Shown here in pieces: positions 7,722-56,462 of a stretch of 64,000 bases of DNA. Every line of letters begins with the position of its first letter. Positions within the stretch are counted from its first letter, which is position 1. The stretch lies in NCBI GenBank assembly GCA_963721165.1, contig CAVRIE010000009.1, positions 19,800-83,799 of the forward strand. Reading direction: 5' to 3'. A program made the translations under genes and the position numbers. Origin of the DNA: an uncultured Actinomycetota bacterium (GTDB lineage: Bacteria; Actinomycetota; Actinomycetes; Propionibacteriales; Nocardioidaceae). The notes under the pieces are model-generated. The model saw only the letters and a list, made by a program, of their open reading frames with translations. It made no database searches and had not been told where the DNA came from.

Positions 7722-8941
7722 ATGCGGTCCACATCTGGTCGCCGCACCCTCCGGTCCGCGGTGTCGGTCGGCCTCGCCGTTTTCGTCGTCGGTGTCACGA
7801 GCGCTGCCTACCCAGAAGGCAACGAGAACTCAGGCTCATCATCGACAGCCTCGAACGGCTCCGCCGGCAACTCGTATATCGATGGCACCCAGCCCGGCGG
7901 CGACCTCCAAACGACTGACGGCACACCAACCGGGGAACAGCCAACTGACGGGGTGTCGCCTCCGGATGTGTCTCCACCGGTCGTGGCTCCACCGGTCGTG
8001 TACTCCGCCGGTCGTGTCTCCGCCTGTTGTGACTCCGCCTGTTGTGAGCTCCGCCGGTCGTGTCTCCGCCTGTTGTGACTCCGCCGGTCGTGTCTCCGCC
8101 TGTTGTGACTCCGCCGGTTGTGTCGACCACGTCCGACTGGAACCTCAATTTCACCTACGGCACGACCAACAACGGTGTCACCACGAACGACAGTTTCAAC
8201 AACGGCAGCTTCTGCAACGGGTCGTCCTCGGACTGTCGGTGCAACGACAGTTCTCACTGTGACGGCTCGAGCTGGCGGTGCGATAGCGGGAGCTTCTGCA
8301 ACGGGTCGTCCTCGGACTGTCGGTGCAACGACAGTTCTCACTGTGACGGCTCGAGCTGTGGGTGCGATAGCGGGAGCTTCTGCAACGGGTCGTCCTCGGA
8401 CTGTCGGTGCAACGACAGTTCTCACTGTGACGGCTCGAGCTGTGGGTGCGATAGCGGGAGCTTCTGCAACGGGTCGTCCTCGGACTGTCGGTGCAACGAC
8501 AGTTCTCACTGCGACGGCTCGAACTGCCGGTGCGACAGCAACAGCGCGCACTGCGACCACTCGAACTGCCGTTGCAACAACGACAATCACTCGTCGGACG
8601 GCAACTGCGGCTGCGACCGGGACACCGGCAACTCGACGGTGACGATATCGCCGGTCGCCACCCCGACAACGGTGCCCGTCACGGTGCCTGTCACGACGCC
8701 GGTCACGGTGCCTGTCACGACGCCGGTCGAGACGACCGTTCCGGCGGCTCCCGTGGTGACCCAGGCCGCCGTGCCGGCCGTCGTGGCAGCTCCCGTGGCA
8801 GCGCCTGCGCCCGCGGCTGCCCCGAGCCAGGGGACGCTGCCCAGGGTGGGTGCCGACTCGAAGGATGACCTGTTGGCCTTCGGAGGTGCCGCGATGCTGC
8901 TCACGGGGATCGTGCTGCTGCGGCTCCAGAGAAGGACCTAA
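7722..8941 (+). CDS. Secreted Cys-rich repeat protein with LPxTG-like (LPRVG) sorting signal; two +1 indels in the VSPPV repeats
   Basis: Signal peptide MRSTSGRRTLRSAVSVGLAVFVVGVTSAAY; Pro/Val repeats; Cys-rich repeats; Thr/Pro/Ala stalk; LPRVG + hydrophobic helix + RLQRRT. Confidence 0.8.
7953..8119 (+). repeat. 15-bp tandem repeat encoding V[S/T/A]PP[V/D] x11
   Basis: gtgtctccgcctgtt / gtgactccgccggtc units; two units are 16 nt (7998, 8044). Confidence 0.9.
8204..8539 (+). repeat. 84-bp tandem repeat x4 encoding GSFCNGSSSDCRCNDSSHCDGSSCGCDS
   Basis: Unit starts at 8204, 8288, 8372, 8456. Confidence 0.95.
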
Positions 8942-9002
8942 GAGCTGGCGCCGGCCGCTACCCAATCCCACCCGGCCGGCGCTGGGATACCTCCCAAGGA
9001 AA

Positions 9003-9038
9003 GTGGGCGGCAGTCTCTCAGTCGAGACTGCCGCCCAC
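9003..9038 (+). terminator. Terminator hairpin, copy 1
   Basis: gtgggcggcagtctc-tcagtc-gagactgccgcccac, 15-bp stem. Confidence 0.8.
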
Positions 9039-9265
9039 GGTTCGTTGTGAGGGTGCGGTGGACGGTCCCCCAAGCGACCGACGCCCACGCGTCTTTGGTG
9101 AAGACGGTGAGTCTGGCCTTCCCGCACCAGCTCGGAACTACCCGATTTTGAGGGCGCCTTTACTTACTTCGCGCTTTAGCGTCCCACAGGCAAAGGAGGC
9201 TTGCGCGGAGCTGCGTGCGAGCGACGACGATCCCGGCTCATTGTGCCGGAGGGTGGAGAAGCGTC

Positions 9266-10295
9266 ATGCATTGCTTACGTACTCGCGGGCATACGTTCCG
9301 CGCTGTCGCATCGGTCGGAATGGCCGTGTTCGTGCTCGGAGTCACCAGTCCGTCCTACGCCGACGACGGCAACGGCTCCCATGGGAACTCGTCTCACCAG
9401 GAGAAGTGGGCCGGCGAGAACTCGGCGGCGGCAACTGGGACGGCGGGAAGTCCGGCGGCGACAACTGGGATGGGGGAAGTCCGACGGCGGCAAGGAGTCC
9501 GGCTGGGACGGGGGAGAAGTCCGGCGGCGACAACTGGGACAGCGAGGAGTCCGGCTGGGACGGGGAGAAGTCCGGCGGCGACAACTGGGGCAGCGAGGAG
9601 TCCGGCTGGGACGGCGAGAAGTCCGGCGGCGACAAGGAGTCCGGCTGGGACGGGGAGAAGTCCGGCGGCGACAAGGAGTCCGGCTGGGACGGGGAGAAGT
9701 CCGGCCGTGACAAGTGGCACGGAGAGGACCACGGGGACAAGGACCACGGGGACAAGGACCACGGGGACAAGGACCACGGGGACAAGGAGCACGGGGACAA
9801 GGACCACGGGGACAAGGAGCACGGGGACAGGGACGCACGGGGACAAGGAGCACGGGGACAAGGAGCACGGGGACAAGGACCACGGGGACAAGGACCACGG
9901 GGACAAGGAGCACGGGGACAAGGAGCACGGCGACAAGGACCACGGGGACAAGGACCACGGCGACAAGGAGCACGGCGACAAGGACGACGAGGAAGAGTGC
10001 GAGTGCCCGAAGGAGGAGAAGCCTGAGAGAGGAGGTCCCGCCCGCTGAGCAGCCTCAGGAGCAGCCCGCTCCGCCCGAGGCCGTCCCGGCTGAGCAGCCC
10101 GCGCCTCCTGCGGAGGTCCCTGCCGCGCCGGCCGTCGCACCGGCCCCCGAGGCAGCGCCTGCCCCGGCCGCAGTGGCTCCGACCCAGGCTCTGCCGTCGG
10201 TCGGTGCCGACCCGGTGGACGAGGCCCTGGCGTTCGTAGGGGCCGGGATGGTGCTCTCGGGAGCCACCCTGCTGTGGCGTCGCAGAAGGGCTTGA
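9266..10295 (+). CDS. Secreted His/Trp/acidic repeat protein with LPxTG-like (LPSVG) sorting signal; several indels within the repeats
   Basis: Signal peptide MHCLRTRGHTFRAVASVGMAVFVLGVTSPSYA; ESGWDGEKSGGD repeats; HGDK[DE] repeats; Pro/Ala/Glu stalk; LPSVG + hydrophobic helix + WRRRRA. Confidence 0.8.
9430..9717 (+). repeat. 39/51-bp repeats encoding ESGWDGEKSGGD(K / NW[D/G]SE)
   Basis: gagtccggctgggacggggagaagtccggcggcgac repeated. Confidence 0.85.
9718..9985 (+). repeat. 15-bp tandem repeat cacggggacaagga[c/g] encoding HGDK[D/E] x17 after a leading HGED
   Basis: Counted directly; the unit at 9820-9835 is 16 nt. Confidence 0.95.
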
Positions 10296-10356: not shown

Positions 10357-10392
10357 GTGGGCGGCAGTCTCTCAGTCGGGACTGCCGCCCAC
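10357..10392 (+). terminator. Terminator hairpin, copy 2 (near-identical to 9003-9038)
   Basis: gtgggcggcagtctc-tcagtc-gggactgccgcccac, followed by ggggtttg. Confidence 0.8.
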
Positions 10393-22975: not shown

Positions 22976-24225
22976 GCTCGGACCTCAACCTGCTCTACAC
23001 CGACGTCGAGGACGACCTGCGCTCGTCGGTGCGGGACCTGCTCTCGTCGCGTTGCCCTGCTGACGCGGTGATCGCGATGTACGACGGCGACCGCTCGCTC
23101 GTCGCGCCCCTGTGGCGGTCGCTGGCCGTCGAGCTCGGGCTGGCGGGGCTGCTCGTGCCGGAGTCCTTCGGCGGTGCCGGGGCTTCTGCTCGGGAGGCGG
23201 CGGTCGTGCTCGAGGAGCTCGGCCGGTTCGCCGCGCCGGTGCCGTTCCTGACCAGCTCGGTCGTCGCCACCGCGGTGCTCGGCGGTGGGTCGCCTGCCGG
23301 TTCCGTGCACGTGCACGGTTTTGACGGCGGAGCGGCCGGATCGCGCGTCGATTCCGGGCAGGTGCACGATTCTGGCGAGGGAGCGGCCGGATCGCGCGTC
23401 GATCCCGTGCATGTGCACGATTCTGGCGAGCTGGGTGCCTCCTTGCTCGCGGAGTTGGCGGCGGGGGAGCGTACGGCGGCCCTGGCGGTGCCGCTGGCGG
23501 CGAGCCCCTGGTCCTTCGAACCCACTGTCACCGCGTCAGGCGATGCGCTGACCGGCCGGGTGACCTCGGTGGCGGGTGCGCTGGAGGCGGATGTGCTGCT
23601 GGTGCCGGTCGCCGTGGACGGGGGCGGCTCGGCCGGGGTCGAGGTGCGCGCGGTCGACGCTGCGGACGCCGAGATCACGCCGGTGACCTCCCTCGACATG
23701 ACGCGCCAGGTCGCCGACGTGTCGTTCGACGGCGCGTCGTCGCGGGTCGTCGTACCCGCAGACTCCGGCGCAGCCGCGGTGCGGAACGCCCTCCAGGTGG
23801 GAGCCGCGCTGATGGCGTCCGAACAGGTCGGTGTCGCGCAGTGGTGTCTCGACACGACGGTGGCGTACCTCAAGGAGCGGCGCCAGTTCGGCCGCGTCGT
23901 GGGCGGCTTCCAGTCGTTGAAGCACCGCCTCGCGGACCTGTACACGCTGGTCGAGCAGGCTCGTGCCGCAGCGCGCTACGCCGCAGCCACGGTCGCGGAG
24001 GGCGACCCGGACCAGGAGGTCGCGGCTTCGGTGGCCCAGGCGTACTGCTCCGACGTCGCCGTGAAGGCGGCCGAGGAGTGCGTGCAGCTGCACGGCGGGA
24101 TCGGCATGACCTGGGAGCACCCGGCGCACCTGTACCTCAAGCGCGCCAAGGCGGACCAGATCGCCTTCGGCACGCCGGGGGCGCACAGGGCCCACCTCGG
24201 CGAGCTCGTCGACCTGCCCGCCTGA
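22972..24225 (+). CDS. Acyl-CoA dehydrogenase with about 50-aa repeat-derived insertion
   Basis: LEELGR, SLDMTR, ERRQFGRVVGGFQSLKHRLAD, VQLHGGIGMTWEH. Confidence 0.9.
   Translation: MSSDLNLLYTDVEDDLRSSVRDLLSSRCPADAVIAMYDGDRSLVAPLWRSLAVELGLAGLLVPESFGGAGASAREAAVVLEELGRFAAPVPFLTSSVVATAVLGGGSPAGSVHVHGFDGGAAGSRVDSGQVHDSGEGAAGSRVDPVHVHDSGELGASLLAELAAGERTAALAVPLAASPWSFEPTVTASGDALTGRVTSVAGALEADVLLVPVAVDGGGSAGVEVRAVDAADAEITPVTSLDMTRQVADVSFDGASSRVVVPADSGAAAVRNALQVGAALMASEQVGVAQWCLDTTVAYLKERRQFGRVVGGFQSLKHRLADLYTLVEQARAAARYAAATVAEGDPDQEVAASVAQAYCSDVAVKAAEECVQLHGGIGMTWEHPAHLYLKRAKADQIAFGTPGAHRAHLGELVDLPA
23303..23430 (+). repeat. In-frame copy of the 51-bp GTGCACGATTC repeat family
   Basis: Palindrome ccgtgcac|gtgcacgg (23303-23318); units start at 23311, 23362, 23413; homologous to 56246-56413. 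Confidence 0.85.
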
Positions 24226-38474: not shown

Positions 38475-38487
38475 GGCACCGGGCCCG

Positions 38488-38569
38488 TAGAACATGCACT
38501 GGGCCGCTCCCGGAGGGACATCCCCGCCTGACGCCGTACTGCGCCGGGACGACTGCATGTTCTGCGGGC
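38488..38569 (+). repeat. 82-bp direct repeat, left copy, with inverted ends AGAACATGCA...TGCATGTTCT
   Basis: Matches 39511-39593 with 2 substitutions and 1 indel. Confidence 0.92.
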
Positions 38570-38600
38570 CCGGGCCAACTCAGCCGCTGCGGGCCCGGGT

Positions 38601-38620
38601 CCTGTGGACGACGGGATGCG
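38601..38620 (+). promoter_or_regulatory. Motif cctgtggacgacgggatgcg upstream of DUF559 gene 1
   Basis: 18/20 identical to 55185-55204; about the same distance to the start codon (51 vs 50 nt). Confidence 0.65.
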
Positions 38621-38651
38621 GAGGTGATCGCGGCCCGGCATCCTCTCCCGG

Positions 38652-39554
38652 GTGAGACCGGAACAGGCGCTCGTCAGGCTCGGCGGGATTGCAGACACGA
38701 AGACGCTCAGGCGCTTCGCGTCACGAAGACAGATACGGAAAGCCGTGGCCAGCGGCGCGATCGTCCGGGACGCCCGTGGACGCTACTCGCTTCCCTCCGC
38801 GTCTGAGGCCCTCAGAGCCGCCAGTCGGCTGAGCGCTGTGGTGTCGCATGTGAGTGCTGCCCAGGTCCACGGGTGGGAGGTCAAGCATCCACCGGCACTC
38901 CCCACGGTGACCGTGCCTCGCAATCGCCGGGTCGCACCTGAACGGCGAGAGGGGGTGGACGTCAAGTGGGCGCACCTCGCTCCACAGGAGGTTCTGAGCG
39001 GGCGTGTCACGTCGTACGGCCGGACGGTCATGGACTGCGCCAAGCACCTGCCGTTCGACGAGGCGCTCGCCGTCGCGGACTCGGCACTGAGGCACGGCAA
39101 CGTGACGAGGTCATGGCTCATCGAGCTGGCCGGCCGGATGCCCGATCGCCACCGCGAACGCTGCCTTCGCGTTGCCCTCGCTGCAGACCGGCGTGCGGCC
39201 AACCCTTTCGAGTCCGTGCTGCGGGCGATCGGGCTCGACATCCCGGAGCTCGTCCTGGAGCCGCAGGTCGTGATCTCGGGCGAGGAGTTCTCGGTCCGCC
39301 CGGACCTCGTCGACGAGAGGCGAAGGGTCGCCGTGGAGGCTGACTCGTTCGAGTGGCACGGCAAGCGGAAGGCGCTCCACGCGGACTGCCATCGCTACAA
39401 CGCGCTCGCCCTCGACGGCTGGCTCGTGCTGCGGTTCAGCTGGGAGGACGTGATGTTCCAGCCCGACTACGTGCGGCGATGTCTCCTCATGGCCTCCCGC
39501 CGCGTGCCCTTAGAACATGCACTCGGCCGCTCCCAGAGGGACATCCCCGCCTGA
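38652..39554 (+). CDS. AbiEi-N / DUF559 (Vsr-like PD-(D/E)XK) nuclease-domain protein
   Basis: N-terminal wHTH (GAIVRDARGRY); C-terminal RPDLVD..RVAVEADSFEWH..D..RYN.L..GWLVLRFSWEDV. Confidence 0.85.
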   Translation: MRPEQALVRLGGIADTKTLRRFASRRQIRKAVASGAIVRDARGRYSLPSASEALRAASRLSAVVSHVSAAQVHGWEVKHPPALPTVTVPRNRRVAPERREGVDVKWAHLAPQEVLSGRVTSYGRTVMDCAKHLPFDEALAVADSALRHGNVTRSWLIELAGRMPDRHRERCLRVALAADRRAANPFESVLRAIGLDIPELVLEPQVVISGEEFSVRPDLVDERRRVAVEADSFEWHGKRKALHADCHRYNALALDGWLVLRFSWEDVMFQPDYVRRCLLMASRRVPLEHALGRSQRDIPA

Positions 39555-39593
39555 CGCCGTACTGCGCCTGGGACGACTGCATGTTCTGCGGGC
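39511..39593 (+). repeat. 83-bp direct repeat, right copy; overlaps the last codons and stop of the DUF559 gene
   Basis: tagaacatgcactcggccgctcccagagggacatccccgcctgacgccgtactgcgcctgggacgactgcatgttctgcgggc. Confidence 0.92.
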
Positions 39594-39647
39594 TCGGCAA
39601 CCAGCCCGGCAACCAGCCGGCAACCCGGGGCCGGCAGCCCGGCGGGC

Positions 39648-41553
39648 TCAGCCGTTGCGGCGGCTGCGGGCTGCGCTGCGGGCGCGCAGACTCTGGTCGA
39701 GCACGACCTTGCGGATCCGCACCGACTCCGGCGTGACCTCGACGCACTCGTCCTCGCGGCAGAACTCCAGGCACTGCTCGAGCGAGAGCTTCTTCGGCGG
39801 GATCAGCTTCTCGAAGTTGTCCGACGTGGAGGAGCGGACGTTGGTCTGCTTCTTCTCCTTGGTGATGTTGACGTCCATGTCGTCCTCGCGAGAGTTCTCG
39901 CCGACGATCATGCCTTCGTACACCTCGGTGGTCGGCTCGATGAACATCGTGCCGCGCTCCTGCAGGTTGGTCATGGCGTACGCCGTCGCCGCTCCCGCCC
40001 GGTCGGCCACCAGGGAGCCGGAGGCGCGGGAGCGGATCTCGCCGGCCCACGGCTCGTAGCCCTCGAACACGTGGTGCGCGATGCCGGTGCCGCGGGTGTC
40101 GGTGAGGAACTCGGTGCGGAAGCCGATCAGGCCACGCGCGGGCACGAGGAACTCCATCCGGACCCACCCGGTGCCGTGGTTGGTCATCTGCTCCATGCGG
40201 CCCTTGCGGACGGCGAGGAGCTGGGTGATCGTGCCGAGGTACTCCTCGGGCGCGTCGATGGTCAGCCGCTCCACGGGCTCGTGGATCTTGCCGTCGATCT
40301 CGCGGGTGACCACCTGCGGCTTGCCGACGGTGAGCTCGTAGCCCTCACGCCGCATCTGCTCGACCAGGATCGCGAGCGCGAGCTCACCACGGCCCTGGAC
40401 CTCCCAGGCGTCGGGGCGCTCGGTCGGGAGGATCTTGATCGACACGTTGCCGACGAGCTCGGCGTCGAGGCGGTCCTTGACCAGGCGGGCGGTGACCTTG
40501 GAGCCCTTGACCCGGCCGGCGAGCGGCGAGGTGTTGGTGCCGATGGTCATCGAGATCGCCGGCTCGTCGACCGTGATCAGCGGCAGCGCGCTTCGGGTCG
40601 TTGGGGTCGGCGAGGGTCTCGCCGATCATGATGTCGGGGATGCCGGCGATGGCGACGATGTCACCGGGGCCGGCGGACTCGCCCGCCTTGCGCTCGAGGC
40701 CCTCGGTCACGAGGAGCTCGGTGATCTTGACGTTCGACACGGACCCGTCACGCTTCATCCACGCGACCTGCTGGCCCTTCTTGAGGGTGCCCTCCTTGAC
40801 GCGCACCAGCGCGAGGCGGCCCAGGAACGGGCTCGAGTCGAGGTTGGTCACGTGCGCCTGCAGCGGCGCGTCCTCGTGGTACACCGGGGCCGGGATGGTC
40901 TCGATGATGGTCTGGAACAGCGGCTCGAGGTTCTCGCTGTCGGGCAGCCCGCCGTTGTCCGGCAGCTTCAGCGACGCGCGGCCGGCCTTGGCGCTGGCGT
41001 AGACCACCGGGAAGTCGAGTGCCTCGGCGTTGTGGCTGTCGTCGAGCAGGTCCATGAACAGCTCGTAGGTCTCGTCGACGACCTCGCTGATCCGTGCGTC
41101 GGCGCGGTCCACCTTGTTGACGACGAGTACGACGGGCAGGTCGGCGTTGAGGGCCTTGCGGAGCACGAACCGGGTCTGGGGGAGCGGACCCTCGGACGCG
41201 TCCACGAGCAGCACGATGCCGTCGACCATGGACAGGCCGCGCTCGACCTCGCCGCCGAAGTCCGCGTGACCGGGGGTGTCGATGATGTTGATCGTCATCG
41301 CGCCGCCCTCGACGGACTGCGCGGCCTCGCCGGTGTACCGGATCGCGGTGTTCTTCGCGAGGATCGTGATGCCCTTCTCGCGCTCGAGGTCGCCGGAGTC
41401 CATGGCGCGCTCGTCGACGTGCTGGTGCTCGCCGAAGGCGCCGCCCTGCCACAGCATCGCGTCCACGAGCGTCGTCTTGCCGTGGTCGACGTGCGCGACG
41501 ATTGCGACGTTGCGCAGGTCGGAGCGGCTCTTGCGGGTGGTGTTCTCGGACAT
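39648..41553 (-). CDS. typA: Translational GTPase TypA/BipA; +1 frameshift near 40591
   Basis: LRNVAIVAHVDHGKTTLVD, EREKGITILAK, DTPGHADFGGEVER, NKVD, VQGRGELAL, LSLEQCLEF..EDECVEVTP. Confidence 0.96.
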
Positions 41554-54934: not shown

Positions 54935-55062
54935 CACTCGCCCCCGCGCCGCCCCCGCCCGGTCGCCCGCCCGCCGCCCGCCCGTCCCCGCCCTGCCCGG
55001 CCCGCCGCCGCGGCCGCCCGCTGGCCCGCATGGCCGCGCCACGGCGACCGCCGCTCTGCCTG

Positions 55063-55143
55063 GCAAGAATCGTGCATGTGCGAGGTTCTTACGGCCGGAC
55101 GGCCGCTGGCGCCGCAAGGATCGTGCACCTGCACGATCCTTGC
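55063..55143. repeat. 51-bp repeat family, left cluster (two minus-strand units + palindrome)
   Basis: gcaagaatcgtgca at 55063, gcaaggatcgtgca-cc-tgcacgatccttgc at 55114-55143. Confidence 0.88.
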
Positions 55144-55184: not shown

Positions 55185-55204
55185 CCTGTGGATGACGAGA
55201 TGCG
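55185..55204 (+). promoter_or_regulatory. Motif cctgtggatgacgagatgcg upstream of DUF559 gene 2
   Basis: 18/20 identical to 38601-38620. Confidence 0.65.
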
Positions 55205-55234
55205 CGACGCCGCACCCCTTGGCAACCTCGTCGA

Positions 55235-56189
55235 ATGACCACGTTGAAGGCCTCGTCCGTCGTCCTCGTCACCACGCCTCGAGACTCGCCGACCGTTCAC
55301 ACGCGCCGACGCGCTGGCGGCAGGGATCCCGGCACGAGACCTTCGCGGCTCGAAGTTCCGGCGGATCTTCAACGGCGTCTACATCGACGCGCGCGTGCCC
55401 GACCATCCGCTGATTCGCGCCGAAGCGGCGCTGCTCGTGCATCCCCCGACCGCGTTCGCCAGCCACGTCACGGCTGCGCGGGTGCACGGACTGCCTGTGC
55501 CCACCCACCACGCAGAGCATGTGACGGTGGTGTCAGCCGCCGACCGGAGCAAGCGCGCCGGGATCAAGTGCCACGTCGCCGGCACTGACGACGTCGTCGA
55601 GATCAGCGGTGTCCGTGTCTCCGGACCGCATCGGATGTTCGTCGAGCTCGCGCCCATGTTGTCGTTGGTCGACCTCGTCGTGGTCGGTGATGCTCTGGTG
55701 CGGCTCGGGAAGACCACACCGGCGGCTCTCGCGGCGGCGTGCGAGCGGAGCGACGCGCGGCATGCGACAGAGGCACTTCGCGCGGCCCGCTACGTCCGGA
55801 AGGAGGTCGACTCCCCGATGGAGACCCGGCTGCGCATGCTGATCGTGCTCGCCGGCCTGCCCGAGCCAGAGGTCAACCACAAGATCCGCGACGAGCACGG
55901 ACGGGTGACCCGACGCTTCGACCTGAGCTATCCCAGCGTCCGGCTGATCGTGGAGTACGACGGCCGCCAGCACGTCGAGATCCAGCAGAACTGGACGTCG
56001 GACCTCGAGCGCCGTGAGGAGTTCGACGACTCGGGCTGGCGGATTCTCGTCGTGACGAGCGACGGCATCTACAAGGACCCCGCCAAGACCGTTGCGCGCG
56101 TGCACCGGGCGCTTCGCAGTCAGGGGTGGCGCGGCCTGCCGACACGAACCTCCGACGCCTGGCGCCCCCACTTCCGCGGCCGGAGCTGA
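55235..56189 (+). CDS. DUF559 (Vsr-like) nuclease-domain protein; frameshift near 55280
   Basis: PFTRADALAAG...FRRIFNGVY; DSPMETRLR; RFDLSY...IVEYDGRQH...DLERRE...GWRILVVT. Confidence 0.85.
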
Positions 56190-56236: not shown

Positions 56237-56413
56237 ATCGTGCACGTGCACGATTCTTGCGCCGCGAGCGACCGGATCGGCGTCGAACCTTCGCAGGTGC
56301 ACGATTCTTGCGCGGCGAGCGACCGGATCGGCGTCGAACCTTCGCAGGTGCACGATTCTTGCGCGGCGAGCGACCGGGTCGGCGTCAAACCTTCGCACGT
56401 GCACGATTCTTGC
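56237..56413 (+). repeat. 51-bp repeat family, right cluster: 18-bp palindrome + 3 full units + 1 partial
   Basis: atcgtgcac|gtgcacgat (56237-56254); units start at 56246, 56297, 56348, 56399. Confidence 0.95.
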
Positions 56414-56462
56414 CGCCGGGTGCGGGCCGCCGGGCGCATGCACCCGGCCAGGCCGCGCGGGG

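Follow-up and report, generated by a model that had tools for sequence, protein, structure and literature searches.

Two genes for divergent DUF559 proteins (here, gene 1 and gene 2) are located in the window, i.e., the whole 64-kb stretch of DNA that was analyzed, and each is preceded by a similar 20-bp sequence. This arrangement raises the questions of whether the sequence is a functional element, whether it is confined to these genes and which protein might bind it. The first-pass annotation had noted that the two copies are at the same spacing from the start codons. Using the pattern CCTGTGGAYGACGRGATGCG with up to three mismatches allowed, we identified exactly two matches in the window, at 38601-38620 and 55185-55204, both on the plus strand, while none of 100 dinucleotide shuffles of the window reached two matches. 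The distance to the start codon is 51 nt for GTG 38652 and 50 nt for ATG 55235, confirming that the two genes have the motif, in two exact copies, and its spacing in common. The features of the two loci are as follows.

38601 to 38620, plus strand: first copy of the 20-mer, CCTGTGGACGACGGGATGCG, an exact match.
38603 to 38611, plus strand: DnaA-box-like 9-mer TGTGGACGA with C38602 and C38612 on either side, at about −49 to −41 from the GTG.
38616 to 38621, plus strand: weak −35-like ATGCGG of the gene 1 promoter, 17 nt 5′ of the −10 hexamer and with moderate conservation as W-K-S-C-G; it may act as the −35 element.
38639 to 38644, plus strand: −10 hexamer CATCCT of the gene 1 promoter, preceded by a G at −14 and located 7 nt before the GTG.
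38652 to 39554, plus strand: gene 1 (300 aa, GTG start, predicted to be leaderless), with an AbiEi-like N-terminal half and a DUF559/MTES_1575 nuclease-like C terminus, based on ORF, Pfam and PADLOC analyses.
55185 to 55204, plus strand: second copy of the 20-mer, CCTGTGGATGACGAGATGCG, a match to the pattern.
55187 to 55195, plus strand: box TGTGGATGA of the second copy.
55200 to 55205, plus strand: −35-like ATGCGC of the gene 2 promoter.
55223 to 55228, plus strand: −10 hexamer CAACCT of the gene 2 promoter, with an extended TGG at 55220-55222, located 6 nt before the ATG.
55235 to 55237, plus strand: ancestral ATG of gene 2, 49 nt after the C preceding the box; in the assembly, its frame differs by +1 from that of the gene body.
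55248 to 56189, plus strand: body of gene 2 (AbiEi-like and DUF559), an open frame of 313 codons in which the first canonical start is GTG 55395.

The proteins encoded by genes 1 and 2 matched the Pfam DUF559 model (PF04480) with 22.5 and 28.3 bits, respectively, both above the cut-off of 20.6, and the MTES_1575 match, at 29.6 bits, was under its cut-off of 38.2. Each protein also matched the AbiEi models of PADLOC with its N-terminal half (2.6e-10 for gene 1, at residues 23-169, and 2.8e-11), and the two proteins are 25.6% identical over 215 residues. The Pfam DUF559 search of the genome from which the window derives identified only three members, and tblastn was needed to find more distant relatives; three relatives found in this way had no clear box. 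Because an in-frame TGA is present at 38625, GTG 38652 is the earliest possible start of gene 1. We also considered that a GTG inside the motif could be the start of an upstream ORF or of an extended N terminus, as it shares the frame of genes 1 and 3, with the TGA intervening in gene 1. This idea was dropped because the spacing is 49 or 50 nt across the family, and the frame is therefore not kept.

For gene 2, a comparison with its orthologue L032, which is 79% identical, pointed to a change in frame. In L032, an ATG at the same motif offset is followed by 48 nt (16 codons) to a conserved TRRPFTR, while 49 nt separate ATG 55235 from TRRPFTR in this genome; gene 2 therefore has a +1 frameshift (window 55235-55290), and the leaderless transcript as assembled would encode a 117-aa out-of-frame product. 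Gene 2 would thus be either a frameshifted pseudogene or the product of an assembly indel. The latter is plausible because ssb, an essential gene of this genome, likewise seems to be frameshifted (minus strand of G000:C10, at about 452450-451790, which is 643-1309 nt 3′ of a box at C10:453096). Its N-terminal OB-fold ORF ends in a noncanonical tail, and the canonical ...GDEPPF C terminus is in a different frame, which suggests indel errors in this assembly. As a separate observation, a subgroup of gene-2-type paralogues that recurs in many genomes has alignments running through exactly one in-frame TGA (e.g., G023:C2:206838-207761, G020:C9:137028-137927, and G011:C70:65975-66886); this TGA could be a conserved stop giving two adjacent ORFs, a recoding site or a result of repeated decay.

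The motif had been proposed to be under selection, and this proposal holds. Among 27 genomes of the genus, 21 of 22 gene-1 homologues carry CTGTGGAYRRCS at 48-51 nt before an ATG or GTG, and 21 of 26 gene-2 homologues have the box within the same distance, so that the fixed distance is kept in 42 of 48 genus loci. Beyond the genus, scanning one genome per species assigned the source organism to the Nocardioidaceae and yielded 80 further loci, of which 78 had enough flanking sequence. The complete layout was present in 68 of these 78 loci, which span the Nocardioidaceae and beyond (Nocardioides, Marmoricola, Janibacter, Quadrisphaera, and unclassified actinomycete MAGs). The surrounding noncoding sequence, both 5′ of the box and between the box and the −10 hexamer, was not conserved, even among close orthologues.

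Although the 42 genus promoters that we aligned had been picked on the box with two substitutions allowed, TGTGGA was invariant in 42 of 42. Box positions 7-9 read Y-R-R in this alignment and Y/G-R-R over the wider promoter set, and a C is conserved on each flank of the box in the alignment. Offsets 35-42, which were outside the selection criterion, read G-G-C-A-n-n-n-T with the A at offset 38 and the T at offset 42 each present in 39 of 42 promoters, and the start codon follows at offset 49-51. In the alignment as well as in a set of 104 unique promoters, we found no consensus TTGACA-like −35 element and instead a weakly kept W-K-S-C-G at offsets 14-18. In the set of 104, the −10 hexamer is at offset 37 in 90 promoters, A-11 and T-7 are each present in 90, and G-14 is present in 78. 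The first base of the hexamer is C in 74, A in 15, G in 15 and T in 0 promoters. The gap from the hexamer to the start codon (ATG in 54 and GTG in 50) measures 6-7 nt in 99 of 104 promoters (6 nt in 71 and 7 nt in 28) and 8 nt in the other 5, and Shine-Dalgarno-like 4-mers precede the start in only 4.

The first-pass annotation had suggested that a CAnnCT hexamer 6-7 nt before the start fits leaderless transcription. The independent conservation of A-11 and T-7 and the scarcity of Shine-Dalgarno-like sequences agree with this suggestion, and leaderless sigma-70-type promoters are expected to have A-11 and T-7 in a hexamer whose end is 6-8 nt from the start codon and to lack a Shine-Dalgarno sequence; we infer that initiation is leaderless. 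The TSS map of Mycobacterium tuberculosis reportedly provides examples of leaderless promoters in the Actinomycetota. Like those, the promoters described here have an ANNNT-type −10 hexamer 6-7 nt before ATG or GTG, no Shine-Dalgarno sequence and a poor −35 element; unlike those, they lack T as the first −10 base throughout and have a conserved upstream operator at a fixed spacing.

Even where the proteins are 25-50% identical and come from several families, the promoters retain the box, G-14, A-11, T-7 and the spacing, and the gene-1 and gene-2 subfamilies (25% identity) display the same mixture of box variants. The geometry is not universal, because the box is often inverted (TTGTCCACAG or TCGTCCACAG) and sometimes doubled in other families of the order (loci L061-L090), where it is located 38-39 nt before a CAnnnT −10 hexamer, with the inverted boxes about 12 nt further upstream. 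Genomes of roughly 8 Mb among these loci have the forward layout with TGTGGATAA. Based on these conservation patterns, the 20-mer is probably the upstream half of a conserved promoter of fixed geometry that would give rise to a leaderless mRNA.

The small hairpins that had been described after the motif only partly stood up. Inverted repeats are indeed present in both copies; however, they are not conserved, because this stretch folds no better than shuffles in the 104 related promoters (mean folding z of +0.28), and we rejected the hairpin as a promoter feature. The hairpin stretch is also located 5′ of the predicted transcript. Scanning the whole window with Rfam returned zero RNA families.

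Is the motif private to DUF559 genes? A position weight matrix scan of the genome from which the window derives identified seven sites of at least 20 bits, including those of all three clear DUF559 genes, and zero in the reversed-sequence control. The full pattern, CTGTGGAYRRC-N25-27-CANNNT-N5-8-RTG, gave 120 matches in the 27 genus genomes compared to 0 in the backwards control, and a variant with TANNNT as the −10 hexamer gave 70 compared to 0. We sampled the client genes of 27 of the 120 full-pattern matches. Thirteen of these sites precede AbiEi/DUF559-family genes, and a 14th precedes a gene that resembles one. The sample further includes sites before a conserved lipoprotein-like gene (four sites), a conserved protein that weakly matched a TOMM leader-binding domain (four sites), an RcpC/CpaB-like gene followed by a 439-aa ORF (two sites), and another small conserved protein (two sites). 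As AbiEi/DUF559 genes account for about half of the sampled sites and conserved other genes for the rest, the motif is not DUF559 specific; the DUF559 genes are its main clients but not its sole ones.

The TAnnnT matches represent three orthologous promoters. In about 25 of the 27 genomes, the dnaA upstream region reads CTGTGGACAAC-CGG-TTGATCCACAG...TTGTTAGCGT, so that CTGTGGACAAC is accompanied by an inverted second box and by TAGCGT at the offset of the family promoters. The promoter of rpsF-ssb-rpsR-rplI has the layout in about 17 of 27 genomes, with dnaB located about 4.5 kb downstream as verified by gene order, and a SAF/CpaB-like gene followed by mscL has it in about 24 of 27. This makes the motif a cis-element common to a promoter class rather than a private DUF559 signal.

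The resemblance of the core to a DnaA box, which had also been pointed out before, is borne out by the orthologous promoters. The DnaA-box consensus of Streptomyces is (T/C)(T/C)(G/A/C)TCCACA. As criteria, we used the general consensus TTWTNCACA and the actinobacterial consensus YYVTCCACA, taken here as TGTGGA-B-R-R. The promoter 9-mers match the DnaA-box consensus, 21 of the 104 promoters have a perfect TGTGGACAA or TGTGGATAA, and the variation Y/G-R-R among the promoter boxes presumably corresponds to the degeneracy of actinobacterial DnaA boxes. Genuine DnaA targets of this genome also contain the element: oriC (the dnaA-dnaN spacer) contains four boxes with flanks similar to those of the promoter boxes, and the boxes of oriC and of the dnaA upstream region have the extra flanking C/G seen in the family promoters. 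Our main argument for DnaA as the binder is that the dnaA upstream region has the same box-to-(−10) geometry as the family promoters. Direct binding of DnaA to the dnaA promoter and autoregulation are established in Streptomyces lividans and mycobacteria (review PMC8203912), and in M. tuberculosis and Mycobacterium smegmatis, the five strongest DnaA sites include rpmH-dnaA and a site 5′ of dnaB (PMC7738170). Based on these comparisons, the best reading, which we consider probable, is a single DnaA-box operator beside a weak leaderless promoter, with DnaA acting as a transcription factor. DnaA itself is, on balance, the likely protein to bind the box.

Several observations speak against DnaA. 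The family promoters have one box each: in the 104 promoters, we detected 6 extra TGTGGA/TCCACA cores compared to 5.8 expected and thus no paired box. E. coli DnaA is reported to prefer closely spaced box pairs (PMC11317965), and stable occupancy by DnaA in vivo is usually at pairs or clusters of boxes (PMC7738170, PMC11317965). In mycobacteria, only five strong DnaA sites were seen (PMC7738170). Box position 7 is G at oriC of this genome (TGTGGAGAA, TGTGGAGGA, and TGTGGAGCA) but C or T in the genus promoters, and the box is often inverted in other families of the order. Finally, the targets outside the family are heterogeneous (RcpC/CpaB-like, lipoprotein-like and one further conserved protein).

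The main rival to DnaA is a dedicated regulator, i.e., a transcription factor of the Actinomycetota that would bind the DnaA-box-like site and control the nuclease-like paralogues, the Tad-like/SAF genes and some housekeeping promoters, leaving only oriC and the dnaA promoter to DnaA. Such a factor would explain why there is one box per promoter without a second site, why so few strong DnaA sites are found in mycobacteria, why the targets outside the family are not replication genes and why a conserved C before and after the box makes the site an 11-mer rather than a classical 9-mer. However, the flanking C/G is common to the boxes of oriC and the dnaA region, and the flanked 11-mer is present at the same distance from the −10 hexamer in the dnaA upstream region, beside an inverted second box, which is a textbook autoregulation site. 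The Y/G-R-R variation, which we take to be that of actinobacterial DnaA boxes, also argues against a dedicated factor. We therefore regard this explanation as possible but rather unlikely and retain DnaA as the preferred candidate.

Much less likely is that the AbiEi-like winged-helix domains of the encoded proteins bind the box, in which case the paralogues would be under negative autoregulation and would regulate each other. AbiEi antitoxins are autoregulators, AbiEi models are matched by both proteins in their N-terminal halves, and family genes are downstream of about half of all sites. As in the abiE operators of type IV toxin-antitoxin systems, an AbiEi-like N-terminal half is thus combined with a conserved element in the own promoter. 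The site, however, is single and asymmetric rather than made up of AbiEi-type inverted repeats; subfamilies with N-terminal domains that are about 25% identical use the same site, with no covariation between box and protein; and the same site and geometry precede unrelated genes (dnaA and rpsF) in nearly every genus genome, including genomes in which no gene-1 homologue was found. Also in contrast to abiE, there is no adjacent AbiEii toxin gene, and the C terminus is a DUF559/Vsr-like nuclease domain. The absence of inverted repeats and covariation and the unrelated downstream genes make autoregulation of this type very improbable.

Both loci are also surrounded by repeats, which are as follows.

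38480 to 38575, no strand assigned: palindrome-containing repeat GAACATGCA...TGCATGTTC, just 5′ of the gene 1 promoter (repeat family D12, 93% identity).
39503 to 39598, no strand assigned: direct copy of the GAACATGCA...TGCATGTTC repeat, overlapping the 3′ end of gene 1.
55058 to 55137, no strand assigned: palindromic repeats of the GAATCGTGCAnnTGCACGATTC type, 5′ of the gene 2 promoter (inverted repeats I1-I3).
56237 to 56414, no strand assigned: three tandem 51-nt copies of the GAATCGTGCAnnTGCACGATTC-type palindromic repeat, 3′ of gene 2 (family D6).

Using BLAST, the GAACATGCA...TGCATGTTC repeat was found at 4 places in the genome, while the GAATCGTGCAnnTGCACGATTC type is dispersed at 17 places, often as tandem 51-nt units; we regard the latter as a REP-like element and not as part of the promoter. 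The 250 nt upstream and downstream of the gene matched each other with at least 30 bits in 26 of 39 related genus loci, compared to at most 25 bits in upstream-versus-gene controls. The arrangement resembles REP-like dispersed repeats in that copies bracket both genes and flanks match in these related loci; it differs in that the repeats vary between loci and genomes, occur without such genes, lie outside the conserved promoter and come without a transposase. That the shared 20-mer is residual homology from an ancestral cassette or the end of a mobile element and functionless today might be suggested by the paralogy of the two genes and by the repeats that bracket them, but this is excluded for practical purposes because the conservation is footprint-like, with the box, G-14, A-11, T-7 and the spacing kept in several families while neighboring sequence drifts, and because the layout also precedes unrelated genes.

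The gene-1 cassette is located beside typA/bipA (window 39648-40550, minus strand, and relatives). As the upstream neighbor of the cassette is not conserved in the genus, typA was used as the synteny anchor. A gene-1-type cassette adjoins typA in 10 of 27 genomes and is within about 4 kb in three more, while six genomes (G001, G002, G008, G009, G018, and G020) lack the cassette and have other sequence after typA. The typA-linked cassettes are 55-94% identical compared to 87-97% for typA. This comparison of typA sites supports that the cassette is old, fast evolving and repeatedly lost but not recently mobile. Elsewhere in the window, dispersed palindromic (REP-like) repeats are also present at 23307-23427, and at 7956-10046, tandem repeats with units of 15, 51, and 84 nt form long arrays that imply a highly repetitive coding region; a 36-nt palindrome in two copies (9003-9038 and 10357-10392) flanks these arrays. 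Outside the window, five DnaA-box-like 9-mers in the same orientation (TCGTCCACA, CCGTCCACA, GGGTCCACA, TCCTCCACA, and TTATCCACA) are located within 150 bp in an intergenic region (G000:C8:76557-76710); the surrounding stretch is free of genes, and another box promoter (C8:78223) is about 1.5 kb away. The five 9-mers may form a DnaA-titrating or regulatory cluster.

Returning to DnaA as the preferred binder, we propose the following mechanism from the promoter sequences. As conservation shows, a single asymmetric 9-mer, TGTGGA-Y/G-R-R with a C on each side, is positioned at about −48 to −40 with its center near −44. Four bases 3′ of it, the weak −35-like WKSCG is followed by a 17-nt spacer, by G-14 and by a (C/G/A)AnnnT −10 hexamer, in which A-11 and T-7 are kept and the first base is never the consensus T. 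The ATG or GTG, 6-7 nt past the −10 hexamer, leaves a space too short for a ribosome-binding site, and RNA polymerase with the housekeeping sigma factor would start transcription at the start codon. The absence of the first −10 T in all 104 promoters together with the weak −35 element suggests that basal activity is low and could be raised by an activator adjacent to the −35 region. The family promoter would thus be intrinsically poor, and its activity would be set by a box-bound protein abutting the −35 region, most likely the replication initiator DnaA. In this way, the AbiEi-like/DUF559 paralogues and a few other conserved genes would be wired to the level or nucleotide state of DnaA. As to the sign of regulation, we can only infer that the bound protein would more likely activate the weak (C/G/A)AnnnT promoters and repress or modulate the strong TAnnnT ones (dnaA and rpsF).

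DnaA boxes are known as transcriptional operators at dnaA and nrdAB in E. coli, at dnaA in Bacillus subtilis and at dnaA in S. lividans and mycobacteria, and DnaA activates or represses depending on its level and bound nucleotide (PMC8203912). The element described here is similar to these operators in its 9-mer, in its location in promoters and in its presence in the dnaA upstream region of the genus. It differs from them in that a single box at one fixed phase (about −48 to −40) is present at many leaderless promoters with a −10 hexamer lacking the consensus first T, in that it is a predicted DnaA site known from sequence and in that its main clients are a multicopy AbiEi/DUF559 nuclease-like family. 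To our knowledge, DnaA is known as a transcription factor in the Actinomycetota essentially for dnaA alone. Our literature search identified no report that connects DnaA boxes with either DUF559/AbiEi-type genes or leaderless promoters and no description of such a regulon, and searching by motif sequence returned only primer matches.

The layout of box, G-14, A-11, T-7 and start codon predicts start codons precisely and can therefore aid the annotation of leaderless genes; it also reveals frameshifted copies such as gene 2. If DnaA is the binder, the more than 100 conserved promoters, each with a single DnaA box in a fixed phase, would amount to a concrete and testable DnaA regulon and would offer a first access to the regulation of the AbiEi/DUF559 genes, which are very abundant. 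More tentatively, and with less confidence than we place in the operator itself, DnaA may directly control a new regulon in the Nocardioidaceae and neighboring families via single phase-locked boxes in leaderless promoters. The largest part of this regulon would be the multicopy, fast-evolving AbiEi-winged-helix/DUF559 family, and the cell or selfish cassettes might thereby read the replication status to switch nucleases. If true, this would establish a new link between replication initiation and genome defense or DNA processing.
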